Shown here: positions 18,364 to 35,587 of the stretch, one piece after another
How the letters are laid out: each line of letters begins with the position of its first letter
How positions within the stretch are numbered: the stretch's first letter is position 1
Assembly: GCA_964348685.1 (NCBI GenBank)
Contig: CAYGDM010000001.1
Span: 1 to 40,360, forward strand
DNA: 40,360 nt
Reading direction: 5' to 3'
From: an uncultured Candidatus Peribacteria bacterium
GTDB lineage: Bacteria > Patescibacteriota > Gracilibacteria > Peribacterales > Peribacteraceae
Made by a program: the position numbers and the translations under genes
The notes under the pieces: generated by a model
What the model was told of the DNA's origin: nothing
The model's database searches: none
What the model saw: the letters and a program-made list of their open reading frames with translations, nothing else

Positions 18364-20154
18364 ATGTTCCCCCGTTGGAACGAACACACACGCAAACGGC
18401 TCATTCGGATCTGGCGATCTACGGTTTTCATCCAACTGATCGCCCTCTTCATCTTCGTGCCGTCGGTCATCCGGTGGTACAAGGACATCGGCCCCCTGCC
18501 GGAATTGCTCGCACACTACAGCTTCGCGATGTTCGGATGGTTACTTCTCGGCGCTGCCATTTCTCATGTCCATGCGCGCGCCGCCGTCGCGATGGCCATG
18601 ACGCTGTCCTACACCGTTGAAGCATTCCTATGCGCATATGAATTAAAAGCGGGCTTCGCACCGAGCATGCACTTCATACTCGATTCCCACTCCGCGGCGA
18701 TACCGGCGGCGATCGCCGTTCTCGGAATGCCGAAAATGATCCTAGTCTTCGTGGCACTCTCTACGATCGCCCTCTGGTCATTGGCACTGTTCCGCGCCGC
18801 GTTGCGGCGAGCGAACGAATTCAACCGTGTGCGGCGCGGTAGAGTGATGGTCACGACCATCGCATGCGCAGCTATCGGTATCACGCTCATATTCGCCTTT
18901 GGTCGCGTGCCGGAACGCATGACGAACGACATTCAATTGAACAATATCCGACGTGATATCCCGATGATATTTCCAGAAAATGGCGGTTTTTCCACCAAGA
19001 GTGACGACAACGTCTTCATCGTGCAGCTTGAATCAGTGAATGCATTGGCGTTGGAAGGAACTCTTGATGGAGCCACGCCGGACGCGACGTTCCGGAGAAC
19101 AATTGCCCCAGTACTCTCGTCACTCACCGAGCGAGGCGTGTTCTTCCCACTTTTCTGGGGCAACGCCATGATGACGAACCGCGCGCAGGAATCGATCCTC
19201 TGCAGGGTTGTGCGGAACGTCCAGGTAGCCATATCGTTCGAGCTGGAAAACCTGATAGGTACGTGCCTCCCCCACGCGTTCGAACGATCGGGCTACGACG
19301 CGTTCGCGTACCGGTCGGATGACTTGGAATTTTCGAACCAAGGAGCGTTCCTCTTCAGGACCGGTTTCGAGGCAGTTCACAATCAAGACATCGGGCGACC
19401 CGATGACGTCTTTGGTAGTTTTGGATACGACGACTGCACGTTCTATGCGCGCTCGTTCGAACACCTGCGATCGGTCTCGACGGAGAGGAGTAAGACGTTC
19501 GTCTATGTCGAAGTCGTCTCCAACCACTATCCCTTCAGATACGAAACAAAAGCCCGAAGCAAGCCATTCCCCCACCCTTCCACATTCCGTGAGAATCTGT
19601 TGAATTCGATCGCCGCACAAGACGAATGCCTCGGCGTGTTTATGGAGGGGTACGACGCATTCGCCCCTGAGAGCTCGCACCTTTTCATCATGCCGGATCA
19701 CTCTTGGCCGTCCGGATACAACGGCTCCACGTTCAACTCGACGGGTGCGTCGCCGGAAAACTTCCTCGTGAACCTTCTCTACGTGCCGCCGGCGGGCAGG
19801 GCCGGCTACGACAGGGGCTCCATCGCTGAGGAGCGCTTCTCGCAAACCGATATCATGGGAACAATCTTCGACCTGCTGAACGGAACCTCGTCTGCGCAAT
19901 CGTTCGCATGGCGGCTGCGCGGGGAAACGAAGCCTTCGGACTACGAAAACTGCCACGTTCTGACACAGCCGTACGACAACGGAAACGTCGTCGTGGTTAG
20001 GGGGAACGAATATTTCCTCTACAAACTTGTCGATCGCACGATCACCCTCGTGGATTTAGCACATGATCTTAGGGGAGATTCCCCCTCGATTGTCGAGCAA
20101 AACGTTAATTTCACGACATTCTGGGAAAAGTACGGCTGCGAAAAGTACCGGTAA
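18364..20154 (+). CDS. LTA-synthase-like / sulfatase-fold (alkaline phosphatase superfamily) membrane protein
   Basis: About 5 N-terminal TM helices. The extracytoplasmic domain carries VFIVQLESVNA (metal/nucleophile region) and VEVVSNHYPF. Confidence 0.75.
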   Translation: MFPRWNEHTRKRLIRIWRSTVFIQLIALFIFVPSVIRWYKDIGPLPELLAHYSFAMFGWLLLGAAISHVHARAAVAMAMTLSYTVEAFLCAYELKAGFAPSMHFILDSHSAAIPAAIAVLGMPKMILVFVALSTIALWSLALFRAALRRANEFNRVRRGRVMVTTIACAAIGITLIFAFGRVPERMTNDIQLNNIRRDIPMIFPENGGFSTKSDDNVFIVQLESVNALALEGTLDGATPDATFRRTIAPVLSSLTERGVFFPLFWGNAMMTNRAQESILCRVVRNVQVAISFELENLIGTCLPHAFERSGYDAFAYRSDDLEFSNQGAFLFRTGFEAVHNQDIGRPDDVFGSFGYDDCTFYARSFEHLRSVSTERSKTFVYVEVVSNHYPFRYETKARSKPFPHPSTFRENLLNSIAAQDECLGVFMEGYDAFAPESSHLFIMPDHSWPSGYNGSTFNSTGASPENFLVNLLYVPPAGRAGYDRGSIAEERFSQTDIMGTIFDLLNGTSSAQSFAWRLRGETKPSDYENCHVLTQPYDNGNVVVVRGNEYFLYKLVDRTITLVDLAHDLRGDSPSIVEQNVNFTTFWEKYGCEKYR

Positions 20155-21192: not shown

Positions 21193-22029
21193 ATGACACC
21201 CGCCCCCAAGCGTCGGCTGAAGATTCTTGAGGCAGCTTCATACCTGCGCGAAAGGATGTGGAGTAGGGATTTCAGCGACTCACGGCGGACGACCTCTTCC
21301 GAAAAGACGCAGGGCATCAGCGTGGTCATCCCCGCGCACAACGAAGAACGCTACATCAAGGATTGTGTGCTCTCGATCGCTGCGCTGAAGGATCCCGCGA
21401 TACATGAGATCATCGTCGTCGACAACGCCAGCACAGACCGAACGGCGGAGATCGCTCGCTCCGTTCCCGGCGTCACAGTCGTGCGCGAGCCGCACAAAGG
21501 GATAACGTGGGCAAGGCAAAAAGGATTAGATATAGCCACCGGCGATCTGTACGCCGCCATCGACGCAGATGTGCGTATATCGCCACAGTGGCTAGCGACT
21601 GTGAAGCGCCGCTTCCAGGATCCGAACATCGTATCGCTGTCGGGCCCCTACGGTTATTACGACCTCACGCGGTGGAAAAATTTCATCATCCGCTTCTTGC
21701 TGCAGCTCATCCTTGCGGAGCAGCGGATCATGGGAAAGCACACAGAACTCATTCGAGGCGGGAACACGGTCTATCGCATGCCCGCCCTTCGGGCCGCAGG
21801 CGGCTTTAACACGGACATCCTTTTCTACGGAGAAGACGTCGACACCTTCATGCGTATCCGGAAGTTTGGAAAAACGGCGTACGACCCGCGAATGTCAGCA
21901 CTATCTTCGGGACGGCGTTTCAACGCCGAGGGGTTTTGGAAAATGCTCTTCATCTACCGCGTCAACTCGGTATGGCAGCACTTGTTCGCCAAGCCGCTGT
22001 TGCACATCACCGAGCACGACTGGCGATAA
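21193..22029 (+). CDS. glycosyltransferase family 2
   Basis: ISVVIPAHNEERYI, IIVVDNASTDRT and AAIDADV (DxD) in a GT-A fold. Confidence 0.85.
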   Translation: MTPAPKRRLKILEAASYLRERMWSRDFSDSRRTTSSEKTQGISVVIPAHNEERYIKDCVLSIAALKDPAIHEIIVVDNASTDRTAEIARSVPGVTVVREPHKGITWARQKGLDIATGDLYAAIDADVRISPQWLATVKRRFQDPNIVSLSGPYGYYDLTRWKNFIIRFLLQLILAEQRIMGKHTELIRGGNTVYRMPALRAAGGFNTDILFYGEDVDTFMRIRKFGKTAYDPRMSALSSGRRFNAEGFWKMLFIYRVNSVWQHLFAKPLLHITEHDWR

Positions 22030-22043
22030 TCGCTTTTCGGCCC

Positions 22044-23378
22044 TCACGGCAACGGCACTGCGCGCCATAATTGCCCTTGCTGCGCCTGCGGCAGAAGATT
22101 AGCGTCACCCTCGCTGTCGCGATCGCGATCATACGAAGCGAACATCGTTCCCGCATACAGGTAACCATCACGGCCCTGCTGCCACGCGACCGGAAGATCG
22201 AGATGACCGAGGTGCTGGTCCGAGATCACCGCGCCCGTCGCGCTGATCTCCACGCCGCGGACGAACCCGAGGTAAAAATCACCGTAGAGCATTTTACCCG
22301 TCAAAAATCCGTTGTAGCGGTCCTGCTCCCCCGGGCGGTATTCAATGCCGACCCACGCGGACCGAAATGAGGACCCTTCCTTTGCCAATGGATCGGCGAG
22401 GATGAATGCGTGCGTCGCCGACATGTCCCATTGTCGCACGGGCGCCGTGAACGTCGCGCAGCTGCCCGTGCGGCACAACGGCCCGTCGCTCATCGGCCAT
22501 CCGAAATTCTGACCGGGCTTCGTCACCACGTTCACCTCTTCGTATGACGTCGACCGAGCATCAGCCACCCAATAGCGACCCTTTTCATCGAATGCACCAC
22601 GCCAGGGATTACGCAATCCATACGCATAGACGAGCCCGCTGCGCTGCGGATCGTTAGGGAATGCGTTGCCTTCCACGAGGCCGTACCCGCTCACGTTCGC
22701 CTTCTTCAGCGGGGCAAAACGCACGACCTTCCCCAATTCGTTCGTAAGATCCTGAGCGTTCACATCACGATGACGCTCACCGATGTTCGCCCACATCGCT
22801 CCGTCGGGTCCGAATGCGATCGTCCCGATGGAGTGCTGGGGAGTGTCCGCCTTCGGATCGCCAACCGCGAGCACGTTCGCCGCCGTGTACAGCGTCTCGC
22901 CGAAATCGACGCTCGACATCGTGTACCGCTTGACGACGTTATACTGCGCATCGATGCAGTAGCCGACGTAGAAAAGACGGTTCGAAACAAAATCTGGATC
23001 GAGGATGATCGAACTGGCTGCACAATCGCCCCCGACGAACACGGCAGGAATCTGGAACGAATCGATCATGACCGCACGGTTCGCTTCCAAGCGGAAGTGG
23101 CCCACTTTCCCGTAGCGGTTCAGCGCGAGGAACTCATCGGAATTCGGGAGAAACGCGAAACTCGTGAGAACGGGAAACTCCCCTCCTTCGAGCGGAATGG
23201 GCTCGAAGCCGATGCGCGTCGGATCGCCACCGAAACGAATGGGCGGCAACGGAGCGAGCTGCACGACCGCGCCCGTAGCGGCGAGCGGCGTCACGTCGAC
23301 GTCCTGCTCGCCGTCCGACGCGAAGCAGCCGACCAGAAGGACGGACAGGGCGAGCGGCGCGAATCGAACACGGACCAT
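22044..23378 (-). CDS. PQQ-dependent sugar (glucose/sorbosone) dehydrogenase-like beta-propeller lipoprotein
   Basis: Lipobox LLVGC after the signal sequence. YAYGLRNPWRGAFD and GQNFGWP are typical of the soluble aldose sugar dehydrogenase family. Confidence 0.8.
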   Translation of the reverse strand: MVRVRFAPLALSVLLVGCFASDGEQDVDVTPLAATGAVVQLAPLPPIRFGGDPTRIGFEPIPLEGGEFPVLTSFAFLPNSDEFLALNRYGKVGHFRLEANRAVMIDSFQIPAVFVGGDCAASSIILDPDFVSNRLFYVGYCIDAQYNVVKRYTMSSVDFGETLYTAANVLAVGDPKADTPQHSIGTIAFGPDGAMWANIGERHRDVNAQDLTNELGKVVRFAPLKKANVSGYGLVEGNAFPNDPQRSGLVYAYGLRNPWRGAFDEKGRYWVADARSTSYEEVNVVTKPGQNFGWPMSDGPLCRTGSCATFTAPVRQWDMSATHAFILADPLAKEGSSFRSAWVGIEYRPGEQDRYNGFLTGKMLYGDFYLGFVRGVEISATGAVISDQHLGHLDLPVAWQQGRDGYLYAGTMFASYDRDRDSEGDANLLPQAQQGQLWRAVPLP

Positions 23379-23442
23379 GCGAAAAGCATGCCAGACGCCG
23401 ACTACGCCCGCTCAAACAAACATGGCTGGGCACAGCAAAAAA

Positions 23443-23451
23443 TGCTATAAT
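23443..23451 (+). promoter_or_regulatory. extended -10 TGCTATAAT upstream of the phosphorylase gene
   Basis: Exact 9-mer 18 nt before ATG 23470. The leader has no SD. Confidence 0.5.
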
Positions 23452-23469
23452 CAAGACCACACACATCCT

Positions 23470-25128
23470 ATGACTCGCACCCTCGACGTCGCGTACTTCT
23501 CGATGGAAATTGGTCTCTCGGAACGTCTTCCGACGTTTGCCGGCGGTCTCGGCATGCTCGCGGCGGACCTCATGCGGTCATGCGCCGACCTTGGTACGAA
23601 CGCAGCCTGCGTCACGATGCGCTGGCAACACGGATATCAACGGCAAACGCTGAACGGCGACGGCACGGTGCGTCACGAAGAGTATGCGTGGGACCCGGCA
23701 GCCGAAGGACTGACGCCGTTGAACGAACACGTAATCGTGCACATCGAAGGGAGAGCGGTCCACGTGGGATGCTGGATGCTGGAATTGCACGGCGCGAAGG
23801 GCGTCTTACCGGTGTATTTCCTCGATACCGACCTTCCTGTGAACCGCCCGGAGGATCGCGAAATCACGCGCAACCTCTACGGCGGCGACCAGGCGATGCG
23901 CATCAAACAGGAAGCGATCCTCGGTATCGGCGGTATCCGTTTGCTCCGGGCACTCGGCATCGCCGAGGTCGGCACGTACCACATGAACGAAGGACACTGC
24001 GCCTTCCTGACGCTCGAGCTACTCAAGGAGCGCAGCTTCAACGACGATGCCGTCCGGCAGTCCTGCGCTTTCACGACGCACACGCCGGTCGCAGCCGGCC
24101 ACGACGTATTCCCCTACGACCTCGCTGGAAAGATCCTCGGCGACATGCTGCCATGGCACATCAAGAAACTCGCGGGCGAGGATGCGCTCTCGATGACGCT
24201 CCTCGCGATGAACCTGAGCCACTACACCTGCGGCGTCTCGAAGCTTCACGGAGGCGTCGCACGCGCGATGCTCGGCAACGGTGCCATCGACCACATCACC
24301 AACGGCATCCACCACCCGACCTGGGCCAGCCCAGAGATGCACACGCTCTTCGACGCGCACATCCCCGGATGGGAAGCGCGGCCGGAGCTCCTCGCCCACG
24401 CGCACGTCCTGCCCGACGACGACCTGCTGAAGGCGCATAAAGCAGCGAAATTACGGCTTATCGAAGCCATTCGCGAGCGTACCGGGCGCACACTCGATCC
24501 AAGCAAACTCATCGCGGTCGAAGCCCGACGCATCGTCCCCTACAAACAGCACGAACTTCTCTATGCCGACGAAATGCGGCTCCGCCAGGTGGGAGACGAC
24601 AAGCTGCAGATCGTCCACAGCGGCAACTCGTTCCCCGGCGACGTGTACTCCGGCGGCGTGATCGCGCACCTGCACGACATCGGCAACCGCTTCGGTTCGA
24701 CGCTGCCCGTGGTCTATGTGCCTCACTACGATCCTACATTCGCAAAGCTCCTCGTGGCGGGCGCGGACGTCTGGCTCAACACGCCCATGCGCCTCAAAGA
24801 AGCATCGGGCACGTCGGGCATGAAAGCCGCGCTCAACGGCACGGTGAACGTCTCGACGCTCGACGGCTGGTGGGCGGAGGCCTATGCGCAAGACCCGGAA
24901 TCAGGCTGGCGCATCGGACCGGAGCGCGAAGTCGCCGACAACGATGAGATGCGGAAACTCGACGCGGAAGACCTCTACACGCAGCTCGAGCTCGAAGTGT
25001 TCCCCTGCTTCGCGGATCCCGCAAAATGGGCAGACCGCATGAAGCGCTCGATCACGCTCGCGGCGACGTTCAACACGCACCGTTGCATCGGGGAATATGA
25101 GGAGAAGGCGTGGCATACGGCACGCTGA
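23470..25128 (+). CDS. glgP: alpha-glucan (glycogen/maltodextrin) phosphorylase, short GT35 type
   Basis: VAYFSMEIGL, GGLGMLAAD and the PLP-lysine motif EASGTSGMKAALNG. The track ORF start at 23164 is a spurious upstream extension. Confidence 0.9.
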   Translation: MTRTLDVAYFSMEIGLSERLPTFAGGLGMLAADLMRSCADLGTNAACVTMRWQHGYQRQTLNGDGTVRHEEYAWDPAAEGLTPLNEHVIVHIEGRAVHVGCWMLELHGAKGVLPVYFLDTDLPVNRPEDREITRNLYGGDQAMRIKQEAILGIGGIRLLRALGIAEVGTYHMNEGHCAFLTLELLKERSFNDDAVRQSCAFTTHTPVAAGHDVFPYDLAGKILGDMLPWHIKKLAGEDALSMTLLAMNLSHYTCGVSKLHGGVARAMLGNGAIDHITNGIHHPTWASPEMHTLFDAHIPGWEARPELLAHAHVLPDDDLLKAHKAAKLRLIEAIRERTGRTLDPSKLIAVEARRIVPYKQHELLYADEMRLRQVGDDKLQIVHSGNSFPGDVYSGGVIAHLHDIGNRFGSTLPVVYVPHYDPTFAKLLVAGADVWLNTPMRLKEASGTSGMKAALNGTVNVSTLDGWWAEAYAQDPESGWRIGPEREVADNDEMRKLDAEDLYTQLELEVFPCFADPAKWADRMKRSITLAATFNTHRCIGEYEEKAWHTAR

Positions 25129-26868
25129 TTATCGCTCTCGCGGTGTTTGCAATTCCTCGTAAATCGTTTGAGGCTTCCACGAAGCGCTCGGATTCAACGA
25201 CGGAATCTTCATGGGATCGTATCCCAGCGAAACGGCTTGGTCGCGCAGCACGTGTTCGCGCAGTTTGTAATAGCGAAGAAACGTCGTCTCTTGGACCAAT
25301 TCGTAATAATGCTTGAACTCCGGCATGGCCTCCATTTCAAGCATAATCCGGAAAATCTTCGTAGTATTCACGTTCGCTCCTCTCTGGTCAGGCAGCGCAT
25401 GGCGAACGATCACCCAGCGAGCAAAGAGCCACGGCTCGCGCACCGCTTGGTCGAAATACCGATAATTTCCTTCGTATACGAACGCAGGAAGCGGAACAGT
25501 GGAACGGAGCATGCGTTCTTCGCTGTAAAAGCGCGTGAACAGCACGCGACCGCCATCGTAATCCGACAGCCAGTCACTGCTGCTCGTACCAGGATCGCTG
25601 GAGAATGCGGCAAACGCCTGCTCATCGTGCCGGATAACGACGAAGTTATTGTCGAACAGCACCATCGACAGGTGCCATACGGCGGCAAGAACGACGGCAG
25701 GTATGACGAGCACGACCGTCACCGCCCGAAGCGCGCGCCAGCGCATGAGCGCATCGATCGCGAGGACAATGGAGACGATTGATGCTCCTACCCACGTCAA
25801 TGCAAAACGGGCGTTATAGAAAAGTCCGTACGGATCCCCTTCGTTGCCAATCCGCGGCAATTCGGGCACCGAGATGCTGCTTCGACCGAGCATCATCGTA
25901 AGGAGCATGAACAGTGCAGGTGAAAACAAGAACAGCACAATGACGACCTCGGTCCACTGTCGACGCACCACCAACACTATCGGTATCGCGGCTGCAAATG
26001 CCGCGATCAACCATTGACCGTGAATATGCACGGAAGCGAGATACAACCTTTGAAGACTATAGAGCAGTACATCAAACGAGAAGCGCGAGGGGCGGAGCGA
26101 GCTCGCGGTCTCGCCGATCCGCTCCGTACCGAGCGAGAGGAAAGCAAGCGGAGACCCTGCGTAGACCGTGCTATAGAGTACGATGAAGAGAGTTCCAAGC
26201 AACGCAACGAAAGAAAATGTGAGAACTATCGCCTGCAGTTGCGCCCACAACATCTTTAACGACCAACAGCGAATCACCACGAAACAGATCGACAACGGAA
26301 TGAGCGTGAAACCTTCGAAACGTGCCAATGACGCAAGTGACACGAAAATACCGAACAATGACAGGTCCAGAAGCGACAACGTCCGTGACCACCGAAGCGC
26401 GAAATACGCGACGCCGGATACCATAACGATGAGCGGCAATTCCGCCATGACGGACGACGCGAAGTACTGGACGAACGGATGGATGAGGAAAAGAACGGGT
26501 GCGAGCAGCGAGGTTCGGGCGGACACGCCGCACTCTCTGCACGTACCGTACAAAAAATGAGCACCCAGGAGGAGGAGCGGGAGCATTGTGATGAATGCTC
26601 CGGCGACAAGCAAAACCGAATGCGGCAGCAGGATGATCGCGGGTAGGAGCAGCACGTGCAGAAGCGGCGGCCAGAAGCCTAACTGGCTGATGCCCGGGGT
26701 GAGGCTATAGACCATTTGAATAGACTGCAGCAGGTGCGATTTCGCGTCGGTAAAGGCATTCACGAATCCATGCGACTGCAGGTAAGCGAAGAACAACGCA
26801 GACACGATGGCAGCTGCGCCGTAGAGCAGCGTAGGAAGGGCCGATGGATGACGCCTGAAGAACATCAT
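25129..26868 (-). CDS. GT-C-fold (ArnT/PMT, GT39-like) polytopic membrane glycosyltransferase-like protein
   Basis: About 11-13 TM helices with an Asp in the first external loop (FTDAKSHL) and a soluble C-terminal domain of about 170 aa. The ATG overlaps the stop of the upstream GT2 fusion (ATGA). The family call is by architecture only. Confidence 0.5.
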   Translation of the reverse strand: MMFFRRHPSALPTLLYGAAAIVSALFFAYLQSHGFVNAFTDAKSHLLQSIQMVYSLTPGISQLGFWPPLLHVLLLPAIILLPHSVLLVAGAFITMLPLLLLGAHFLYGTCRECGVSARTSLLAPVLFLIHPFVQYFASSVMAELPLIVMVSGVAYFALRWSRTLSLLDLSLFGIFVSLASLARFEGFTLIPLSICFVVIRCWSLKMLWAQLQAIVLTFSFVALLGTLFIVLYSTVYAGSPLAFLSLGTERIGETASSLRPSRFSFDVLLYSLQRLYLASVHIHGQWLIAAFAAAIPIVLVVRRQWTEVVIVLFLFSPALFMLLTMMLGRSSISVPELPRIGNEGDPYGLFYNARFALTWVGASIVSIVLAIDALMRWRALRAVTVVLVIPAVVLAAVWHLSMVLFDNNFVVIRHDEQAFAAFSSDPGTSSSDWLSDYDGGRVLFTRFYSEERMLRSTVPLPAFVYEGNYRYFDQAVREPWLFARWVIVRHALPDQRGANVNTTKIFRIMLEMEAMPEFKHYYELVQETTFLRYYKLREHVLRDQAVSLGYDPMKIPSLNPSASWKPQTIYEELQTPRER

Positions 26869-29153
26869 GCCGAGGGCGGTATGGGCGTCGCAGAAACAAT
26901 GCTCATAACCGGATGATTCGTCTTATCCCACGTGGATTCTTGACGGAAGAACCGCAGGATAGAGCGAAGTGTTGCGTAGCTGAGGAATAGCCAGTAAATA
27001 GGCGAGAACAGAGCAAGGCCCACGAACGAATAATACTTTCGGTAGTAAAGACCGAGAAAATTGAAATATGTGAACATGAGGTTCGCGAGGAAGAATGACA
27101 TCACCGATAAATAGAGCAGGATATCGGTGAAGATCGTCTGCATGATGGGGTCGTTCGTCGCGTACCAGAAAAACAACATCATCCACTGCACGAGGTTCAA
27201 ACCATTGAGGAACACTCCTCCGGGAACGTGGAACATGAACATAAGCACGTTACGAAGTCCGCCGAGGTCCTTCCAGAGGAGTGCAGGGAAGCGCAGATTC
27301 ACCATGGACGTCTGCACGAACCCCTGCATCCAGCGAGTACGCTGTTTGATCCAGTCACCAAGCCTGGTGGTCGACTGCTCCCATGAAGCCGAATCGAGCA
27401 CTGAGGCGTTCTTGTACCCGTTGCGGAACATGCGGATGCCGATGTCACAATCTTCCGCGAGGTTGTATGCATCCCATCCACCGACCTTGATGAGTTGCTC
27501 GCGACGGAAATACACGCTGTGGCCGGAAATCGGCGTGGGCGATTTTACCGTGGCGAGGCCCGGCAGGAAAAAGTTGTAGAAGAATGCGAACTCCGCGGTA
27601 TACATCTTCGTGAGCCAATTGGTACTGGCGTTGTACACGTCGATGCGGCAATGCACGTAATCGAGGTGGGGGCTGTACTTGAACGCCGCCATGGCCTTCA
27701 TGAACTGGTCTGTCTCGGGAAGCGTCTCCGCGTCAAAAATCACCAGGAATTCCCCCTTCGTTTCGCGCAACGCCACGTTGAGCGCCTTCGGTTTCGTCTT
27801 CGGCTGCACGTCAGGCGAGACGAGCCCTTTGAAGTACGCGGGCTTTTTTATCTGGGTAAATGCGTTGATCGTGTCGTCGTCACCGGATTCGAAAATGAAT
27901 ATCAGATCTAGTTTGTCCGCCGGGTAATCCATGTCAGCCATGCGCTGACACAGCTGCGGCAACACCTCTTTTTCTTTGTACACCGGAAGAATCACCGAAA
28001 TAACCGGAAGATCTTTCTTGTCCTCATCCGACAATCCTTTGGGCGGCTGCGGCGGCAAACGGAACGTGATCGACACGACGTATACCTTGAAAAGGATCAG
28101 CGCGAACTGGATGATCGCAATGTGGAAGAACATCGACCACGCGAAGCTCTTTCCTGTAAGCTCATTGATAAGCCAAAAGTACCCGATGACAAAGAAAAAC
28201 GCATAAAATATTAGGAAATACACCTCGCGCGTAAGGTGCCCCTTCGCGCTTTGCTCTGGCGCGAGAAAGAGGTAGTCGTTGATGTTCGTAAAACCGGCCT
28301 CGAAGTATTCCTGTGGCTGCGGGGGGTAGAGGAACGGAAAAATGATGCGAGCAACGTGCGCGACATTAAGAGAAATAATGCTCAATGCGAGCGACGTGCG
28401 CGATGAGACTGACCCCCACACGCCGTGATGGAACATCGACCGCGTGTACGCCACTTTCATCGACGCGATCGTCCATCCGACGCGACGCGCGTGATAGAGC
28501 AGGATGGAATCGAAACCAAGGCGATGATCGAACTCCGGATCGAAACGCAGCGAATCGAGTAATGTGCGCCGGAACATTTTCAGACCCGATCGCACGTCGG
28601 CATCGACCGACAGCAAGATATGACCGAAAATCCACCGATAGAACGAACTGAAAATTTTGTACGCGAGAAACGGATACGCGGCGCGATTTGCAACGACGAT
28701 CTGCGCTTCGTCGAGCCGTGCAATCATCGCCCGAAACGCGTCGGGAGGACACCGCAGGTCCGCGTCGATCACCACGACGATGCCGCCCGTCGATTGATCC
28801 AACCCTTCTTTGATCGACATCGTGCGCCCCTTCACCCCCTGGTTGCGCACGTACCGCACGGGTACCGCTGCCGAAGCTGATCGAACGAAATCTTCCGTGC
28901 CGTCGCGGGAACGATCATCGACCACGAGAATTTCATACTCATACCCGCTGCCGTTCAACGCTACGGCGATGCGATCGAAGCATCCCGATAAAAAGCGTCG
29001 GTCATTGTGCACCGGTACGATGACACTAACCAACGTCGCACTCGCACGCGCGACGGCCTCCGCGTACTCCGAAATCGTCAATTCATCCGCACGATCAGCC
29101 ACAGCCGTTATTGCCGGATGCTGACTATCGTCCATGGAGGAATCGGCAGGCAT
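26865..29153 (-). CDS. two-domain GT2 fusion: GtrB/DPM1-like polyprenyl-phosphate glycosyltransferase domain plus membrane-embedded processive synthase-like GT2 domain
   Basis: N-terminal domain: VSVIVPVHNDRRFL, ILVVDDRSRDGT, VVIDADL, SGLKMFRR. C-terminal domain: ISVILPVYKEKEVL, FLVIFDAETLPE, NLAEDCDIGIRM, KQRTRWMQGF (QxxRW). The C-terminal domain is flanked by multiple TM helices. Confidence 0.8.
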   Translation of the reverse strand: MPADSSMDDSQHPAITAVADRADELTISEYAEAVARASATLVSVIVPVHNDRRFLSGCFDRIAVALNGSGYEYEILVVDDRSRDGTEDFVRSASAAVPVRYVRNQGVKGRTMSIKEGLDQSTGGIVVVIDADLRCPPDAFRAMIARLDEAQIVVANRAAYPFLAYKIFSSFYRWIFGHILLSVDADVRSGLKMFRRTLLDSLRFDPEFDHRLGFDSILLYHARRVGWTIASMKVAYTRSMFHHGVWGSVSSRTSLALSIISLNVAHVARIIFPFLYPPQPQEYFEAGFTNINDYLFLAPEQSAKGHLTREVYFLIFYAFFFVIGYFWLINELTGKSFAWSMFFHIAIIQFALILFKVYVVSITFRLPPQPPKGLSDEDKKDLPVISVILPVYKEKEVLPQLCQRMADMDYPADKLDLIFIFESGDDDTINAFTQIKKPAYFKGLVSPDVQPKTKPKALNVALRETKGEFLVIFDAETLPETDQFMKAMAAFKYSPHLDYVHCRIDVYNASTNWLTKMYTAEFAFFYNFFLPGLATVKSPTPISGHSVYFRREQLIKVGGWDAYNLAEDCDIGIRMFRNGYKNASVLDSASWEQSTTRLGDWIKQRTRWMQGFVQTSMVNLRFPALLWKDLGGLRNVLMFMFHVPGGVFLNGLNLVQWMMLFFWYATNDPIMQTIFTDILLYLSVMSFFLANLMFTYFNFLGLYYRKYYSFVGLALFSPIYWLFLSYATLRSILRFFRQESTWDKTNHPVMSIVSATPIPPSA

Positions 29154-29163
29154 AAATCCTTTT

Positions 29164-29172
29164 ATTATAGCA
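29164..29172 (-). promoter_or_regulatory. extended -10 TGCTATAAT (minus strand) for the GT2-fusion operon
   Basis: The reverse complement of ATTATAGCA is TGCTATAAT, 10 nt before ATG 29153. Confidence 0.5.
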
Positions 29173-29238
29173 GAAATTCAACCTTCTTCACAGCATCGAA
29201 TCACGATACGATTGGATATGGCGCCTATGCTGAAATTA

Positions 29239-29247
29239 TGGTACAAT
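29239..29247 (+). promoter_or_regulatory. extended -10 TGGTACAAT, 6 nt before ATG 29254 (leaderless geometry)
   Basis: TGnTACAAT followed by CATGAG and then the in-frame ATG 29254. Confidence 0.5.
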
Positions 29248-29253
29248 CATGAG

Positions 29254-32200
29254 ATGCGTCGACATCTTCGAGCACTGGCTCTCATCGCCGTCATCGGCTG
29301 CTCGCTAGTGCTGTATCGCGAGTGGGTGATGCGCAGCTCGCCGCCAATATTCTTGCCGCTGGGATTCTTCGAAAACGCGTCGAACATACACTCCCCCGAA
29401 GACGAAGCACGGGATCCGCGCGCATGGATAGACCCTCTTTCGTCGCTCGTCGTAGACGACGCCACGTTCATCCGCCTCACGCAGCACCTACGCGCCGACG
29501 AACGCACAACGGGAATTCTCGTAACGGGCGCGACGTTCGGTGGAATCGCAGCGGCCTTGTCCGCAGCGGAAGACGGCGTCCCGACCATACTCGTGACGGA
29601 ACGCGATTGGACCGCCGACATGCGGGCGGCGGCGGGACGCTTCCTTGCCCAAAAAACACTGCCCGATACGCCCGGCAGCGAGATCGAATCGTCACTGCGC
29701 GCCGCCGTAGGCGCGAACGGCACGCCGGCATCTGTCACCGCATTCTTCAAGCAGCGGGCGGCTTCCGCTCCGCTCTTAGATATCATGGAACACTACGTCA
29801 TCCTGGCGTTCGGGCGCTCGGAAGACGGCGCATTGAACCGAGCCTTGCTTCGTCACGCTGACGGAAGCGGCGAAACAATCGTGCAGTTTGAGTATGTGAT
29901 CGACGGCACGCTCGAGGGTTCAACACTCGCCAGCGCCGGGGCGCCGACGCGCGCAAGTTGGGATGCATCAATCGACGGCATAGACGTCGGCTCGTTGCCG
30001 ACACGGGCACTGTCCGCGTTGACGGAAGGATACACAATGAGTGGATACTCGATTCCCGGGCTAGGAAAGCGCATTGAAAACGGCACCGCGCAACTAGGCG
30101 TCATCGATCGTGGATTTAACGGTACGTTCGTGCCCATCGACGATGCGGATGACTGCTGGGAAAAAGACGGACGGGCCCCCCTCATCTCCACGGGAACGGT
30201 CCTGCGAACGAAAACCGTCGGGTGCACCGCCCGCATGCGGGTCGAATCGAACTTCGAAGATACCGTTGAATTGTTCCTTCTCAACCACGGAGACGACGGC
30301 ATGTCGGCGACCATCGCACTCGGAACGAATACGCTCCTATCGATTGACGCGCGGTTCGATCCAGCCGAAACATTCGTCCGATTGGGAGCTTTCCCCGTGG
30401 GACCGCAATCGCCCCTCGCCATCGAGCTGACGAGCGTCCTACCGACGAACCGCCTCGAAGGTATTGTCGCGCGCAAACTAAACACAGGCTCGGCCGGCGT
30501 GCATGCGACAACCGTCGGAAACGAACCTGCGGCGTTCATGACGAACGACTGGCGCAATACCACTTACGACATCTACATGACGACCGACAGCGTCGTCGGC
30601 ATTCCGCTAATCCTCATCGACGAACAACCATTCGAAACCACCCCTATCGGCCGAGGCACATACGCGGTACGAAACGTGTCACTCGGAAGCGCGGAACACA
30701 CGATGCGCATTCCTGATGGAGACGGAGTGCAGCGCATCTCCGCCATTCCCGTGCAACCGGTCGTAGCTGCCATACCGTTGACGATACTCTCGAGGAGCGA
30801 GGCAGAACCCTCCTGGACGTTCACGCCCACGAAAGACGGCACGGCCCTCCTTACGATACCCGCGCGCGCATGTGAAACGCGCTGCGTGCTCACCGTGCGC
30901 GTGATCGATTCATCGATACCGGAATTCCAAATCGAACGAACACCCGGTGAGGAACTGGTCGCGCAGACGATACCAGTAGACATGATCCGCCTTCGAGCTG
31001 GTACGACATATGCGATTCTGACGGACGCCGGGTACAACAGAATCACTCCGCCCGTCGTATCCATGATCGATAACGACGCGACGCTCTATGCCTCCGACAA
31101 CGGCAGCGCGACCGTTACGCCGTCGCGCGAAGGACTCTTATACGATATTTGGATTCGCTCTGTTCGATCGCCTCGAACCAGCGTTTCGGCAGACGGATAT
31201 GAGAGAGAAATTGCGTCGTCCGCTGATTGGCAATACGCCATCACGGAGCCTCTTTCTCTGAAAGGAGTCACCGCTCTCGCGGGCGGGAGAGTCGAAATAC
31301 TCGCCCTTCCGAACGTAACCGTCGACACCTATCACCTTCCGGTCTATCAACCGCAATCGATCGAACCTCCTCTCGTCAACCCTCTACCCGGCAGGTATCA
31401 AGTCGTCAGCTACGGCATCGACAATCCGACGGCCATCATCGCGGACAACGCGAAAGGAACGGTGCAAACACTATCTTTCACGGGCAATAACGGCTCCTAC
31501 CACGCCGAACAAACATATCTGCATTCTTCGCCCGCCCGGCTCTCGCTGTCGTCTCCATGGCCACAGCGACTCGTGCTCTACGAGCGCATCGCTAAACCGT
31601 TGGATGCCTCGGTGCCGATCCGCGATGCGACGATAGTCGCGCTCAACCGACAACGGTCGTCAGACGAATGGGACGAAGAGAAAGGATCGTTGATGTTCGA
31701 ACCGCGCGCACACGGCATCGGGCCCGTCACCATTGGCACAATGCATTCCCCCTCCGTCGACACTCGCGTAAGGGCAGCCACGGAAGACGCGTTTTTCCTC
31801 ATGCGCATGGGAAAAACAAATATCGACATTCCCGGCAAGAGCTGTGCCTTTTCCAAGAACCCGCGGTGCGACATGCGACGTTTCGTGCGCAACCCCGCCA
31901 TCTTCGGAACGAATGATAGCCTCGCGTCGCCCACGTTCTACACGGAGGGCAGACGGCTGATCGGCGCCGACACACTTACCACGACGGGCGCCTACGCCCT
32001 GCGGCGACAGTGCTCCTCGTGCCTCATGACATGCCTGCCAGCCACGTCGAGCGGATCAACGTGCGTCATGACGTCGGATCTCACAGTGCCGCAGGGAACG
32101 ATTCTAACTATTCGAGGCGCGCCCGGTGTTCCGTCAATAAGTTCTCCGCAGGAGATTGCCCAACATACGCTTCCGTCTCTCTTCAAATTAATGCGCCGAG

Positions 32201-32874
32201 ACGAATTACTCGAAGAGAAACCGACCTACTTGGAACATCATCCCCCATTGCGCGACATCTCACTCACGCTTGGCATGCTCATGCCGGCACAGCGACTAAA
32301 CATCCTCGCGGGTTCGACGACAGTCAGTACGACCGCGACGGCCGCGAAAAGCCTACGCCTTCCCACGACCGAACTTGCCATCGGCAGCGCCGCGGGGCAT
32401 GCCGCCGCGTTTTCGCTACGCGAAGAGCACTCCCCTTTGTGGCTCATCATGGAATCGCCCGACGCCTATGCGCGGCTGCAGCGATACCTCGTCGAGAAAG
32501 GCGCACGCGTACTTCCAGTGCACGGCACCGATGAGTTCTCAATGAAAGCCGTGCAGCGCAGGATCCTCGACGGCGACGAGACACTCTCGCCGCGATGGAC
32601 CGGCGACGGCGTGACATTCGTATCGTCGTCGTTCACGGCGGACGAACAAGCCCTCGTGTTCGGCGACGAAAACGTGCGAACGGTGAAGGACGCCCTCGAG
32701 CGATTGCCAGGTTCGCCCGAACAAAAAACGCCTGCGAACCTCTTCCGATTCGGCATGGAGAACGGCTTCTTGAACAAAAAAATGCTGAATCTCACCCTCG
32801 ACGAAATCATGAACATCCCGCTCGACGAGGAACTCCTCCTTGCGGCCGATTACCTGCTGCGCATGCAACCGTAA
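29254..32874 (+). CDS. 1206-aa membrane-anchored protein with split FAD-dependent-oxidoreductase (PF12831-like) motifs around a large insert of unknown function
   Basis: N-terminal TM LRALALIAVIGCSLVLY. Rossmann-like GILVTGATFGGIAAALSAAEDGVPTILVTE (nt 29512-29601). FEYVIDGTLEGSTLASAGAP (nt 29887-29946). EGRRLIGADTLTTTG (from nt 31945). NILAGSTTVS....ELAIGSAAGHAAAFSL (around nt 32371). Start chosen at 29254 because of the promoter geometry; the track ORF starts at 29134. Confidence 0.6.
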   Translation: MRRHLRALALIAVIGCSLVLYREWVMRSSPPIFLPLGFFENASNIHSPEDEARDPRAWIDPLSSLVVDDATFIRLTQHLRADERTTGILVTGATFGGIAAALSAAEDGVPTILVTERDWTADMRAAAGRFLAQKTLPDTPGSEIESSLRAAVGANGTPASVTAFFKQRAASAPLLDIMEHYVILAFGRSEDGALNRALLRHADGSGETIVQFEYVIDGTLEGSTLASAGAPTRASWDASIDGIDVGSLPTRALSALTEGYTMSGYSIPGLGKRIENGTAQLGVIDRGFNGTFVPIDDADDCWEKDGRAPLISTGTVLRTKTVGCTARMRVESNFEDTVELFLLNHGDDGMSATIALGTNTLLSIDARFDPAETFVRLGAFPVGPQSPLAIELTSVLPTNRLEGIVARKLNTGSAGVHATTVGNEPAAFMTNDWRNTTYDIYMTTDSVVGIPLILIDEQPFETTPIGRGTYAVRNVSLGSAEHTMRIPDGDGVQRISAIPVQPVVAAIPLTILSRSEAEPSWTFTPTKDGTALLTIPARACETRCVLTVRVIDSSIPEFQIERTPGEELVAQTIPVDMIRLRAGTTYAILTDAGYNRITPPVVSMIDNDATLYASDNGSATVTPSREGLLYDIWIRSVRSPRTSVSADGYEREIASSADWQYAITEPLSLKGVTALAGGRVEILALPNVTVDTYHLPVYQPQSIEPPLVNPLPGRYQVVSYGIDNPTAIIADNAKGTVQTLSFTGNNGSYHAEQTYLHSSPARLSLSSPWPQRLVLYERIAKPLDASVPIRDATIVALNRQRSSDEWDEEKGSLMFEPRAHGIGPVTIGTMHSPSVDTRVRAATEDAFFLMRMGKTNIDIPGKSCAFSKNPRCDMRRFVRNPAIFGTNDSLASPTFYTEGRRLIGADTLTTTGAYALRRQCSSCLMTCLPATSSGSTCVMTSDLTVPQGTILTIRGAPGVPSISSPQEIAQHTLPSLFKLMRRDELLEEKPTYLEHHPPLRDISLTLGMLMPAQRLNILAGSTTVSTTATAAKSLRLPTTELAIGSAAGHAAAFSLREEHSPLWLIMESPDAYARLQRYLVEKGARVLPVHGTDEFSMKAVQRRILDGDETLSPRWTGDGVTFVSSSFTADEQALVFGDENVRTVKDALERLPGSPEQKTPANLFRFGMENGFLNKKMLNLTLDEIMNIPLDEELLLAADYLLRMQP

Positions 32875-32965
32875 CCGCACCGCAGTACGGATGAAGGGCT
32901 AGAGTGATCACACAACGTATTAAGCATCTGGGAAGTCCAAGGAACTGCCGCAGAATGCATTTTTA

Positions 32966-32974
32966 TGGTATAAT
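32966..32974 (+). promoter_or_regulatory. extended -10 TGGTATAAT for the glucan operon
   Basis: TGnTATAAT 47 nt before ATG 33022. Confidence 0.5.
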
Positions 32975-32981
32975 CAAGAGA

Positions 32982-32999
32982 TTTCTCGACGTCGAGAAA
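32982..32999. promoter_or_regulatory. 18-bp perfect palindrome TTTCTCGACGTCGAGAAA (operator or 5' mRNA hairpin)
   Basis: Perfect dyad starting 8 nt after the -10 hexamer, about +2 to +19 of the predicted transcript. Confidence 0.45.
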
Positions 33000-33021
33000 C
33001 ATCCACACAAACACACGCTCA

Positions 33022-34296
33022 ATGTCCCTGCACACGCTCATGTTCGGATGGGAATATCCCCCGCTCCATACGGGGGGTCTCGGCGTCGCGTGCCAGGGCC
33101 TCGTTCGAGGTCTCACGAAAAATGGCGTGAAGGTCACGCTCGTGCTCCCGATGGATTTGCAGAGCCACCCCGACGCACACATGCTCCGCGGCCCCGCCGA
33201 CGCGACGGGCACGATCGAGCTTGATGAAGCGAGCGTGCGCTTCGTGCAGAGCGGGCTACAACCCTACGAAGGGTTCGCGGACTACGCGCAACGCATGAAC
33301 ATGCTCAGCGCGCAGAACGTCGCCGCGCCCGGTCAGTCGATCGCGGACCTCTACGGCCCCGACCTCGGCGAAGCCGTCTGGCGCTACGCCGAACAGAGCG
33401 TCGCCGTGACGAAGGACCTCCACCCCGACGTGATCCACTGCCACGACTGGATGACCTACGAAGCGGGCATCAGGGCCTCGAAGTACCACCGCGTCCCCCT
33501 CGTCGCGCACATCCACGCCACGGAGCTCGACCGTACGCACATGCAGCCCAACCAGTGGATCGCCGATCAGGAGCGCAACGGTTTCCTGATGGCCGACCGC
33601 ATCGTCGCCGTGAGCAACTACACGAAGAACATCCTCGTGCAGCACTACGGCATCAACCCGCACAAGATCTCGGTCGTCTACAACGGCCACGACGTGCCGG
33701 CCGGCAGCAACCTCCACATGCGCCACAAGAACATCGTCACCGACGCGAAGAAAAAGCGCGCGCCGCTCGTGCTCTTCCTCGGCCGCATGACCACGCAGAA
33801 GAACCCGGTTCTGTTCCTCGAGGTCGCAAAACTCGTGACCGACGCCAAGCCCGACGTGCAGTTCGTTATGGCCGGCGACGGCGGCATGCTCCAGGAGCTC
33901 GTCGACCAGTCGTGTCGCATGGGCCTCGGCGAAAACGTGATCTTCACCGGCAAAGTCGGCAAGCGCGAAGCGGAACAGCTTTACCGCCAAGCGGACTGCT
34001 TCGTGATGCCCTCGGTCAGCGAACCGTTCGGCTTGGTCGCTCTCGAGGCGATCGCTCACGGCACGCCGGTGATCCTCAGCAAGCAGTCCGGTGCCGCCGA
34101 GGTATGCGACCACGCGTTCAAAGTTGACTACTGGGACAAGGCGAAGATGGCCGACTGCATCCTCACAGTCCTCCGCGAGGAACCGCTGGCGCGCCAACTA
34201 CGCTCGGAAGCGCCGAGCATCCTCAAGCGCCTCAACTGGAAAAACCAGGCCGGCGAAGTGGCCTCCCTTTATAAACACATGCTCTCTTCCCTCTAA
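33022..34296 (+). CDS. GT-B glycosyltransferase, glycogen/alpha-glucan synthase-like (GT4/GT5)
   Basis: FGWEYPPLHTGGLGVACQGL at the N-terminus and PSVSEPFGLVALEAIAHGTPVI (E-x7-E) at the C-terminus. Sits within the glucan operon. Confidence 0.8.
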   Translation: MSLHTLMFGWEYPPLHTGGLGVACQGLVRGLTKNGVKVTLVLPMDLQSHPDAHMLRGPADATGTIELDEASVRFVQSGLQPYEGFADYAQRMNMLSAQNVAAPGQSIADLYGPDLGEAVWRYAEQSVAVTKDLHPDVIHCHDWMTYEAGIRASKYHRVPLVAHIHATELDRTHMQPNQWIADQERNGFLMADRIVAVSNYTKNILVQHYGINPHKISVVYNGHDVPAGSNLHMRHKNIVTDAKKKRAPLVLFLGRMTTQKNPVLFLEVAKLVTDAKPDVQFVMAGDGGMLQELVDQSCRMGLGENVIFTGKVGKREAEQLYRQADCFVMPSVSEPFGLVALEAIAHGTPVILSKQSGAAEVCDHAFKVDYWDKAKMADCILTVLREEPLARQLRSEAPSILKRLNWKNQAGEVASLYKHMLSSL

Positions 34297-34300
34297 TCGT

Positions 34301-35587
34301 ATGGCTCAGCGCGTTTGCTTCTACTTCCAAGTCCACCAGCCATACCGGCTGAAGGACCTGCGATACACCGACGTCGGCACCGACGCGCAGTACTTCGACG
34401 AAGAAAAAAACAGGGCGATCTTCCGGAAGGTATCCGAAAAGTGCTACCTGCCGACGAACGCGACGATGCTGAAGATGCTCAAAGAAAACCCAGGCTTCCA
34501 CGTGTCATACTCGCTCTCAGGCGTGTTCCTCGACCAGTGCATCGAATACGGACCGGACGTGCTGCGCTCGTTCCAGGAGCTGGCCGAGACAGGCCAGGTC
34601 GAGTTCCTCGCTGAGACCTACTACCACTCGCTGTGCAGCATCAAATCGCTCGGCGAATTCTGCGAACAAGTCACGAAGCACTCGCGCATGATCCAGAAAC
34701 TCTTCGGCCAGACGCCGACCGTCTTCCGCAACACCGAGCTTATCTTCAACAACGAGATCGCCCAGGTCGCCCGCCTCATGGGCTTCGAAGGCATCGTGAC
34801 CGAAGGCACCGACCGCCACCTCGCCGGCCGCACGCCGAACGTCCCCCACCGCACGCCGACCTTCCGCCTGCCCCGCGCGGCCGAAGCCGTCATCGCGAAG
34901 AAGCGCCCCCACGCGAAAGCCGCACGCACGATCGACGTGCTCCTGAAGAACTACAAACTCAGCGACGACGTCGCCTTCCGTTTCTCGGATAAAAACTGGT
35001 CCTGCCACCCGTTGCACTCCGACACCTACGCCAACTGGGTGATCGACACCCCTGGCCACAGCGTGAACCTCTTCATGGACTACGAAACCTTTGGCGAACA
35101 CCAGTGGGCCGACACGGGCATCTTCCAATTCCTCGCGTCGCTCCCCCATCAGTTCGCAGCCCGCGGCATCCGCGCCTGCACGCCGAGCCAGGTGATCGAA
35201 GAGTGGGACGCCGTGCATCCAACCTACGACGTGCACAACACAATTTCGTGGGCCGATACCGAACGCGACCTCTCGGCCTGGCAAGGAAACGTGATCCAGA
35301 ACGCATCGCTCGAGGCTATCTACAACATCGAAAAAGCCGTGAAGGCCACGAAAGACGCAAGCCTCATCGACACGTGGCGCAAGCTCCAGACCTCGGACCA
35401 CTTCTACTACATGTGCACGAAGTACTGGGCCGACGGCGACGTGCACAAGTACTTCAGCCCGTACGACTCGCCCTACGAAGCATACCGCCGCTTCAGCCAT
35501 GCGATGGCCCACCTACGCGCGCAGGTCGCCGCACGCGACGCCGGCAAGAAATCCCGCCGCATCAACCATTCATCCCCCACCGTCTAA
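34301..35587 (+). CDS. glycoside hydrolase family 57 (alpha-amylase / glucan-branching type)
   Basis: FYFQVHQPYRL and FMDYETFGEH regions are typical of GH57. ATG 34301 lies 4 nt after the upstream stop. The track start at 34091 is a spurious extension. Confidence 0.85.
   Translation: MAQRVCFYFQVHQPYRLKDLRYTDVGTDAQYFDEEKNRAIFRKVSEKCYLPTNATMLKMLKENPGFHVSYSLSGVFLDQCIEYGPDVLRSFQELAETGQVEFLAETYYHSLCSIKSLGEFCEQVTKHSRMIQKLFGQTPTVFRNTELIFNNEIAQVARLMGFEGIVTEGTDRHLAGRTPNVPHRTPTFRLPRAAEAVIAKKRPHAKAARTIDVLLKNYKLSDDVAFRFSDKNWSCHPLHSDTYANWVIDTPGHSVNLFMDYETFGEHQWADTGIFQFLASLPHQFAARGIRACTPSQVIEEWDAVHPTYDVHNTISWADTERDLSAWQGNVIQNASLEAIYNIEKAVKATKDASLIDTWRKLQTSDHFYYMCTKYWADGDVHKYFSPYDSPYEAYRRFSHAMAHLRAQVAARDAGKKSRRINHSSPTV

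Follow-up and report, generated by a model that had tools for sequence, protein, structure and literature searches.

Three-component glycosylation systems are represented by GtrA/GtrB/GtrC and ArnC/ArnEF/ArnT, and also by CsbB/GtcA/YfhO and GacI/K/L. To our knowledge, no known system of this type decorates a polymer made by a synthase-dependent system, the class to which BcsA/B/Z, PgaCD/IcaAD and the class I hyaluronan synthases (HAS) belong. A MATE flippase has been described as the third component of one characterized three-component system, which acts with a pentofuranose (PMC11127046). Here, we describe a two-gene locus in which the two types of system appear to be merged. It lies in a stretch of 40,360 nucleotides, referred to below as the window, from an uncultured Candidatus Peribacteria bacterium (assembly GCA_964348685.1, contig CAYGDM010000001.1, positions 1 to 40,360 of the forward strand). 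The organism belongs to the Candidate Phyla Radiation (CPR) or Patescibacteria, bacteria that are mostly uncultured, are often attached to other microbes and have a largely uncharacterized surface chemistry. The first gene encodes a 762-residue fusion of two glycosyltransferases of family GT2 and the second a 579-residue membrane protein with a predicted GT-C fold. We propose, with moderate confidence, that the two form a surface-glycan module in which an exported polymer would be decorated outside the membrane from a lipid-linked sugar. The features of the two genes are as follows.

Positions 26865-29153, minus strand: open reading frame (ORF) of the fusion gene, 762 residues, comprising a DPMS/GtrB-like GT2, a linker and a membrane GT2 of the processive-synthase type.
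Positions 28425-29036, minus strand: N-terminal GT-A domain of the fusion, residues 40-243, of polyprenyl-phosphate glycosyltransferase type as judged by profile against the PDB.
Positions 28230-28424, minus strand: helix (residues 244-271) and conserved cytoplasmic linker (residues 272-308), placed by alignment, hidden Markov model (HMM) coverage and hydropathy.
Positions 26865-28229, minus strand: synthase module of the fusion, residues 309-762, PF13641/PF13632, with its GT-A domain at 384-611.
Positions 26865-26868, minus strand: ATGA overlap of the fusion stop and the GT-C start, junction gcATGATGttc.
Positions 25129-26868, minus strand: ORF for the predicted GT-C-fold membrane protein, 579 residues.

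Both ORFs and their overlap had been proposed in an initial annotation made from the letters alone and are present as described. The motifs that it quoted all occur in the fusion protein: VVDDRS at 77-82, DADLRC at 130-135, FDAE at 473-476, AED at 566-568 and QRTRW at 604-608. The TGA stop codon of the fusion gene overlaps the ATG of the GT-C gene. For comparison we used relatives from a scan of one genome per species, the best 80 genome loci being kept and labelled with L-numbers. The same 4 nt overlap is found in the relative L081; in L082 there is a 25 nt gap instead.

Pfam divides the 762-residue protein into two separate GT2 domains, PF00535 at 43-161 (1e-33) and PF13641/PF13632 at 384-693. 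Full-length homologues extend down to 26% identity, and the AlphaFold model (predicted local distance difference test score, pLDDT, 86; predicted template-modelling score, pTM, 0.75) places a beta/alpha domain at 41-240. A profile of residues 36-310 built from 15 homologues was run against the PDB. The best matches were PfDPMS (3.4e-42, positions 4-234 of 271), ArnC (4.4e-34) and GtrB (1.2e-31), all of which take in the acceptor half of the domain. The next, chondroitin synthase (1e-26), is matched over the N-terminal nucleotide-binding half only, and other GT2 enzymes score 1e-26 or weaker, mostly over the N-terminal half only. Judged by these profile matches, the N-terminal domain is a member of the DPMS/GtrB/ArnC clade of GT2 polyprenyl-phosphate glycosyltransferases, which upholds its first description as a GtrB/DPM1-like enzyme.

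The acceptor-phosphate site of PfDPMS consists of Arg117, Ser135 and Arg131, and the glutamine of the DADLQ(H/D/N) signature of polyprenyl-phosphate glycosyltransferases coordinates the metal (PMC5526996). We read 36 aligned homologues against that structure. The window protein keeps Asp79/Asp80, Asp130-Ala-Asp132, Arg157 (Arg117 in PfDPMS numbering), Ser169 (Ser135) and Arg238 (Arg202). Asp79 and Asp130 are each found in 35 of the 36 homologues, Asp80 and Asp132 each in 32, and the acceptor-site equivalents Arg157 and Ser169 in 30 and 29, respectively. Helices are present at 163-180 and 244-271. The linker that follows, with the pattern FPFLYPP...EYF.AGFTN.NDYLFL..QSAKGH.TRE, also heads homologues that consist of the synthase only, and HMM coverage of synthase-only genes begins at about 250-300. 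We assign the membrane helices at 309-365 to the synthase module rather than to the N-terminal domain because synthase-only homologues start just before them.

The C-terminal module is, from its motifs and its predicted structure, a membrane synthase of the BcsA/HAS/PgaC type with an intact catalytic motif set. Asp425, Asp474-Ala-Glu476, Glu567-Asp568, Gln604, Arg605, Arg607 and Trp608 are invariant over 36 sequences reaching down to 26% identity, and Lys452-Asn459 is likewise invariant in the alignment. Five long helices, taken to span the membrane, are predicted around the GT-A domain, two before it (309-333 and 337-365) and three after it (644-666, 678-704 and 713-737), and in the AlphaFold model an interface helix at 598-619 carries QRTRW. 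This resembles PgaC, which has 2 + 3 helices and depends on PgaD. Foldseek matches the module to BcsA (7e-16) and to hyaluronan synthases (Chlorella virus HAS, template-modelling score, TM-score, 0.54, target-normalized) and gives 0.69 for PcManGT. With the invariant motifs and the Pfam assignment, these matches bear out the initial annotation of a processive-synthase-type GT2. The synthase sequence does not identify the polymer, all equivalog models lying far below their cutoffs. The best NCBIfam match is PgaC_IcaA (118.8 bits, cutoff 422.3), followed by the XrtG-associated GT2 TIGR03111 (4.9e-28, 98 bits, cutoff 364); CelA (74.5 against 699) and NodC (53.7 against 550) were also matched. Since no equivalog cutoff is reached, the sugar of the synthase cannot be named.

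The 579-residue protein gives no sequence match in Pfam, NCBIfam or the PDB, the last searched with phmmer and also with a family profile. Its AlphaFold model (pLDDT 86.5, pTM 0.87) has, by the list of model helices, roughly 11-13 membrane-spanning helices followed by a 173-residue C-terminal soluble domain. Of the top 47 Foldseek matches of this model in the PDB, 46 are GT-C glycosyltransferases, among them STT3 (6e-6), DPY19, ALG9, Pmt4, AftB, PglB, Emb and ArnT (5f15, TM-scores 0.51/0.54); a glycosylphosphatidylinositol transamidase subunit (entries 8imx_U, 7w72_U and 7wld_U) is also matched. Relatives of the protein match PF13231 (PMT_2) at E <= 0.01 in 17 of 22 cases. The structural prediction and the matches of its relatives confirm the GT-C-like fold first suggested for it.

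Asp41 (codon 26746-26748), His45, a WPPLL motif and Arg183/Glu185 are invariant over 22 sequences, down to 26% identity. Asp41 and His45 are both in the first outer loop; Asp41 comes after the membrane helix at 10-32, the first of the protein, and at the start of a loop helix (40-51). Such invariance speaks for catalytic activity and against a role as scaffold. A non-catalytic protein, completing or guiding the export channel in the way of BcsB or PgaD, would be consistent with the pairing of the GT-C gene with synthases regardless of the N-terminal domain, with a synthase that has five flanking long helices, three of which pass a hydropathy cutoff, and with a window protein that falls below the Pfam threshold. 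We consider such a role most improbable: conservation of these residues over sequences 26-30% identical is typical of active GT-C enzymes, and Clostridium drakei has BcsB as well as a GT-C protein.

More than 575 relatives were found in the scan. A synthase gene could be scored in 79 loci, that is, in 78 of the 80 kept and in the window itself. The N-terminal domain precedes the synthase in 27 of these, both are followed by a C-terminal extension in 31, 11 are synthase-only and ten carry a different N-terminal extension, for example MshEN. Most hosts are Patescibacteria, with Peribacteria the closest and Saccharibacteria, Doudna-, Levy-, Roizman-, Woese-, Gottesman- and Moranbacteria also represented; synthase-only forms occur in addition in Chloroflexi, Aquificota and C. 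drakei. A query spanning the junction (residues 150-420) is matched on both sides by at least 23 cluster representatives among the 150 listed. An assembly or frameshift artefact joining two genes was considered and rejected, the same fusion being found in 58 loci of the best 80 and its junction being spanned by those representatives. Full-text literature searches returned no account of the fusion, or of a system combining the synthase with a GT-C protein. The author of the initial annotation knew of no described system with this fusion; the fusion itself is widespread in Patescibacteria, where it is annotated only generically. Many metagenome-assembled genomes titled 'uncultured Gammaproteobacteria', 'Pseudomonadales' and 'Bdellovibrionales' (L010, L012, L013, L017, L020-L025 and others) also carry the CPR-type fusion and neighbourhoods, and such titles may be unreliable.

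The initial annotation had proposed a search for co-occurrence of the fusion with the GT-C gene and with the divergent giant gene, which encodes a protein with a flavin adenine dinucleotide (FAD) oxidoreductase domain. In 25 of the 79 loci (11 with the N-terminal domain and synthase, nine of the 11 synthase-only loci and five with other N-terminal extensions) the GT-C gene comes immediately after the synthase gene in the same orientation, and in 21 more it is within 10 kb. The giant gene lies divergently beside the cassette in every Peribacteria relative examined (L001, L081, L082 and L083). Since the GT-C gene adjoins the synthase in nine of 11 loci that lack the N-terminal domain, the conserved core is the synthase and the GT-C protein, with the N-terminal domain an addition. 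This corrects the initial annotation, the pair being equally frequent without the N-terminal GT2.

In L056 the fusion and GT-C genes are repeated in tandem as two successive cassettes. C. drakei SL1 (L079, 6448-13717) has, on the same strand, a GT-C gene (PMT_2), a DPMS-like GT2 carrying GtrA_DPMS_TM, a synthase with MshEN, and BcsB; by its domain content this run brings the three enzyme types together in unfused form. The 31 loci with a C-terminal extension, from Microgenomates-type genomes (L019, L021, L026, L032 and others), encode giant single-chain enzymes of about 1100-1620 residues. The three longest scanned (L019, L021 and L032; about 1570-1620 residues) consist of a DPMS-like GT2, a synthase GT2, a membrane region of about 450 residues and a GT4, and the membrane region of L032 is MatE-like (25.3 bits, cutoff 24.9). 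Many of these long-form loci also have CE4 deacetylase genes, and genes of the dTDP-rhamnose pathway are found nearby, the latter assigned by eye from cluster representatives. In the closest clade (L003-L007 and L013-L014) a GH8 glycoside hydrolase is fused to the GT-C protein or encoded directly after it and a GH6 gene is nearby, which hints at a beta-1,4-glucan-like polymer there.

The gene order common to the Peribacteria relatives is GH15, GH57, GT4/5, giant FAD gene (divergent), fusion, GT-C, phosphorylase (convergent) and GSDH-like gene. Against this background one segment differs between near-identical strains.

Positions 25115-28229: swapped cassette (GT-C gene and synthase module) relative to L082/L083, delimited by blastn and sliding identity.

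Neighbouring genes encode proteins 95-99.6% identical to those of L083, while identity falls to 82.5% for the giant protein, 55.8% for the fusion and 31.9% for the GT-C protein. At the DNA level the identity to L083 is 95% over 22237-25114, 97% over 32903-37344 and 81.5% over 28230-32855, which holds the N-terminal domain, the intergenic region and the giant gene; 25115-28229 has no blastn match in L083. Sliding identity in this segment is 42-64% against 89-100% in the flanks. The right breakpoint is at residues 308/309, the boundary between the N-terminal domain and the synthase, and the left breakpoint is the end of the GT-C gene. The synthase module and the GT-C gene have been replaced together between the window and L083, and the N-terminal domain has not. 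Relative to L081 the synthase module is 93%, the N-terminal domain 57%, the GT-C protein 53% and the giant protein 45% identical. The locus is thus a mosaic hotspot of serotype-like character. A swap between near-identical strains is to be expected of a locus for variable surface sugars and is known from the capsule and O-antigen loci of other bacteria; it suggests that the module serves in attachment to hosts or in evading phages.

The linkage that speaks for our proposal consists of the ATGA overlap, the adjacency of the GT-C gene, the L056 tandem, the C. drakei run and the joint replacement. Much of the same evidence bears on the possibility that two independent pathways are merely co-located. 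The N-terminal domain and the GT-C protein would then act in the manner of PMT or ArnT on proteins, lipids or cell-wall polymers, and the synthase would make an unrelated exopolysaccharide. The GT-C family matches PF13231, a family of protein O-mannosyltransferase type, sortase and Mur-ligase-like genes are found near some loci (assigned by eye from cluster representatives), and the GT-C protein is the most variable part, at 53% identity to L081 against 93% for the synthase module. We nevertheless judge this arrangement rather unlikely, as the GT-C gene adjoins the synthase even where the N-terminal domain is absent, GT-C::GH8 fusions and the GH6 neighbour tie the GT-C protein to polysaccharide, the synthase module and GT-C gene are replaced jointly between strains and cassettes are duplicated in tandem.

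The module that we propose would work as follows; the domain identities and the genetic linkage are observed, and its chemistry, flipping step and acceptor are inferred. The synthase module would polymerize a nucleotide sugar into a glycan and thread the chain across the membrane. The polymer would probably be beta-linked, and most likely beta-1,4-linked in the closest clade. The N-terminal domain would transfer a sugar to polyprenyl phosphate at the membrane face, and the lipid-linked sugar would be flipped, perhaps by a protein of the MOP/Wzx type or by the enzyme's own membrane helices. Outside the cell, the GT-C protein next to the synthase would move this sugar onto the emerging polymer, and the outcome would be a decorated, strain-variable surface polysaccharide. 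The logic of polymer synthase, lipid-sugar supply and outside transferase had been put forward in the initial annotation and draws comparative support from the unfused C. drakei genes, the MatE-like long forms and the L056 tandem. One candidate for the flipping step lies elsewhere in the window.

Positions 9994-11460, plus strand: candidate flippase of Wzx/MOP type, probably about 415 residues from near 10.2 kb, based on the JGI names of homologues.

JGI annotates its homologues, of about 415 residues, as 'O-antigen/teichoic acid export membrane protein', and over 251 residues it shares 26% identity (E 3e-10) with the MatE-like part in the middle of the long CPR fusions. It has no Pfam match. 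It is a possible flippase for the system, with a tentative link at a distance of 15 kb from the cassette. No GtrA-type flippase was found by Pfam in the scanned ORFs of the window or by phmmer, with the GtrA-like domain of C. drakei, in the loci.

Several observations weigh against the proposed module. No flippase gene is adjacent, the sole candidate being distant and weakly supported. The pairing of synthase and GT-C genes in nine of 11 loci without the N-terminal GT2, with no DPMS-like gene seen nearby, means that the GT-C protein is not obviously dependent on the fused domain. The window has no GH8, GH6 or CE4 gene by tblastn, and because GH8 and GH6 are absent the polymer type for the window is extrapolated from relatives. 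A CE4 deacetylase is encoded in 21 Microgenomates-type loci, suggesting a different, N-acetylated chemistry there. Among the helices around the synthase GT-A domain only 309-333, 337-365 and 678-704 pass a simple hydropathy cutoff and, as there are just five long flanking helices in the model and three that pass, a closed export channel is not demonstrated by them.

The N-terminal domain itself departs from the canonical pattern. The window reads DADLRC rather than DADLQH/D, with arginine in place of the metal-coordinating glutamine; in PfDPMS terms Gln93 is replaced by Arg134, His94 by Cys135 and Arg131 by Tyr165. Position 134 is arginine in 17 of the 36 homologues, the Peribacteria clade, and glutamine in ten, which keep DADLQ, and tyrosine at the Arg131 equivalent occurs in the window and in 18 of the 36 sequences. 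AlphaFold helices, hydropathy and alignment reveal no membrane anchor or GtrA-like domain belonging to the domain, whereas GtrB and ArnC are anchored by a hairpin and type III DPMS by a GtrA-like domain of four helices. The features expected of a polyprenyl-phosphate glycosyltransferase are thus retained at the DxD motif, Arg157 and Ser169 and lost at the DADLQ glutamine and one acceptor arginine, and the domain looks functional yet non-canonical.

The loss of the DADLQ glutamine in the Peribacteria clade and the missing anchor would also suit an N-terminal domain that is an ordinary cytoplasmic transferase adding a second sugar, the fusion then being a two-site heteropolymer synthase like the chondroitin, class II hyaluronan and heparosan synthases. 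In Foldseek both domains are matched by K4CP chondroitin polymerase and heparosan synthase, and the long forms carry a third domain, GT4. Set against this are the profile, which strongly favours DPMS, ArnC and GtrB along the whole domain with its acceptor site at the interface helix, the restriction of the chondroitin synthase match to the nucleotide-binding half, the retention of the Arg117 and Ser135 equivalents in 30 and 29 of 36 sequences, and the fact that in C. drakei, where the counterpart is unfused, it is a canonical DPMS bearing GtrA_DPMS_TM. We regard a heteropolymer synthase as quite improbable.

The fusion places the lipid-sugar product of the N-terminal domain beside the synthase active site, the best structural matches of the GT-C protein are oligosaccharyltransferases (STT3, 6e-6) and Pfam scans of the window ORFs reveal no BcsB, PgaD or outer export partner. 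These points would fit a lipid-primed synthase, in which the polyprenyl-phosphate sugar made by the N-terminal domain primes the polymer, the chain grows on the lipid and crosses the membrane and the GT-C protein transfers the whole chain to wall, lipid or protein. However, STT3, ArnT and DPY19 all give TM-scores of about 0.5, so that no subclass stands out, synthase-only genes pair with GT-C genes without a priming domain, and we know of no monophosphate-linked polymer donor for any GT-C enzyme; we find lipid priming decidedly unlikely. A self-priming, lipid-anchored polymer factory, which would amount to a fourth route of polysaccharide assembly merging synthase-dependent and lipid-carrier-dependent logics, is to our mind just as doubtful. 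If true, it could be the main way in which small-genome CPR bacteria build a strain-variable coat.

The surroundings of the cassette include the following.

Positions 29154-29253: divergent intergenic region of 100 bp between the fusion gene and the giant FAD gene.
Positions 29254-32874, plus strand: giant FAD protein gene, about 1206 residues, divergent from the fusion; Pfam FAD_oxidored PF12831, 3e-16.

The initial annotation had given the block a promoter of its own at TGCTATAAT. This element, at 29164-29172 on the minus strand, is only 10 nt upstream of the fusion ATG, has no -35 element and was not called by a sigma-70 scan, and the claim is not sustained; promoter-like and terminator-like sites are no more numerous in the window than in shuffled sequence. 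Low GC content had also been noted. The two-gene block is indeed the lowest 4 kb stretch of the window, but at 54.5% against 59.5% for the remainder, the quoted values of 42-52% referring to single 60 nt lines. The GC content at third codon positions is 0.67-0.70 in the block and 0.78-0.87 in most other genes checked. At the other end the stop codons of the phosphorylase and GT-C genes adjoin directly, with zero spacer and no terminator-like site between them.

Read from 29134, where its longest ORF begins, the giant gene would take in the first 20 nt of the fusion gene, which lies on the other strand. We favour the in-frame ATG at 29254, which fits the homologue lengths of 1208-1229 residues. 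The protein has an N-terminal hydrophobic anchor (MRRHLRALALIAVIG...; segment MRRHLRAL...), has no PDB sequence match and is fast-evolving, with 36-82% identity where the flanks have 95-99%. The glycan of the module could also be its substrate.

Genes of alpha-glucan metabolism surround the cassette (23470-25128 and 33022-37629: phosphorylase, GT4/GT5 glycogen-synthase-like, GH57 and GH15). A GSDH-like beta-propeller protein is encoded nearby (22044-23378, minus strand) and also near the cassette in L014 (14345-17395); in L018 (3967-7242) the gene immediately after the GT-C gene encodes a 1092-residue version that has PKD and PA14 domains. The segment 17284-23378 has variable glycan-related content between conserved genes. 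In the window this includes an LtaS/LtaP-like sulfatase-fold membrane protein (18364-20154) and a 278-residue GT2 (21193-22029), in L081 a double GT2 and a UDP-glucose dehydrogenase, and in L082 a 217-residue GT2, a polysaccharide pyruvyl transferase and an FrhB-like protein. The stand-alone GT2 at 21193-22029 was considered as the real lipid-sugar synthase and rejected, its best PDB matches being generic soluble GT2 enzymes.

The module is compact and recurs in many CPR classes, and it is unfused in Chloroflexi and a Clostridium. We found no published description of a synthase-type polymerase paired with a GT-C enzyme. The two genes may yield enzymes for making decorated beta-glycans, and C. 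drakei is a culturable host of the synthase, GT-C and lipid-sugar gene set.

The arrangement is best called three-component glycosylation merged with a synthase-dependent system; the enzyme families are known, and their combination is uncharacterized but widespread. As in GtrA/GtrB/GtrC and ArnC/ArnEF/ArnT, the locus combines a DPMS/GtrB/ArnC-clade GT2 with an enzyme of GT-C fold, and the long CPR forms hold a MatE-like region where a flippase would be expected. Unlike in those systems, the lipid-sugar synthase shares one chain with a polymer synthase and lacks a separate anchor, the window shows no adjacent flippase gene and the GT-C gene tracks the synthase rather than the GT2.

The synthase module shares with BcsA/B/Z, PgaCD/IcaAD and class I HAS the D, DxD/E, ED and QxxRW motifs and the interface and flanking membrane helices; the GH8 accessory of relatives recalls BcsZ, and the C. 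drakei relative, the only one with BcsB, also has an MshEN domain of the cyclic di-GMP-binding type. Unlike in the Bcs and Pga operons, no PilZ, BcsB, PgaD or GH8 BcsZ was found in the window by Pfam scans and tblastn for GH8, it is a GT-C enzyme that constantly accompanies the synthase, and a further GT2 precedes the synthase at the N terminus. The XrtG-associated system includes a large GT-C-like 'PTPS-related' membrane protein; in contrast to that system, no exosortase was seen at our locus. Two GT-A domains per chain are also found in K4CP chondroitin polymerase and PmHS2 heparosan synthase (Foldseek 1e-14 to 1e-10), but these are soluble or peripheral and both of their domains extend one chain, whereas in the fusion the second domain is predicted to be membrane-embedded and the first belongs to the lipid-phosphate acceptor clade. 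As a working analogy only, we note the BcsA-BcsG pair of phosphoethanolamine (pEtN)-cellulose, in which a synthase-docked membrane enzyme modifies the nascent polymer outside the membrane; the E. coli cellulose synthase:pEtN-transferase complex BcsA-Bct-G3 (9fmv) is among the PDB matches. Unlike the GT-C protein, BcsG is a transferase of the alkaline phosphatase fold that uses phosphatidylethanolamine and not a polyprenyl-phosphate sugar.

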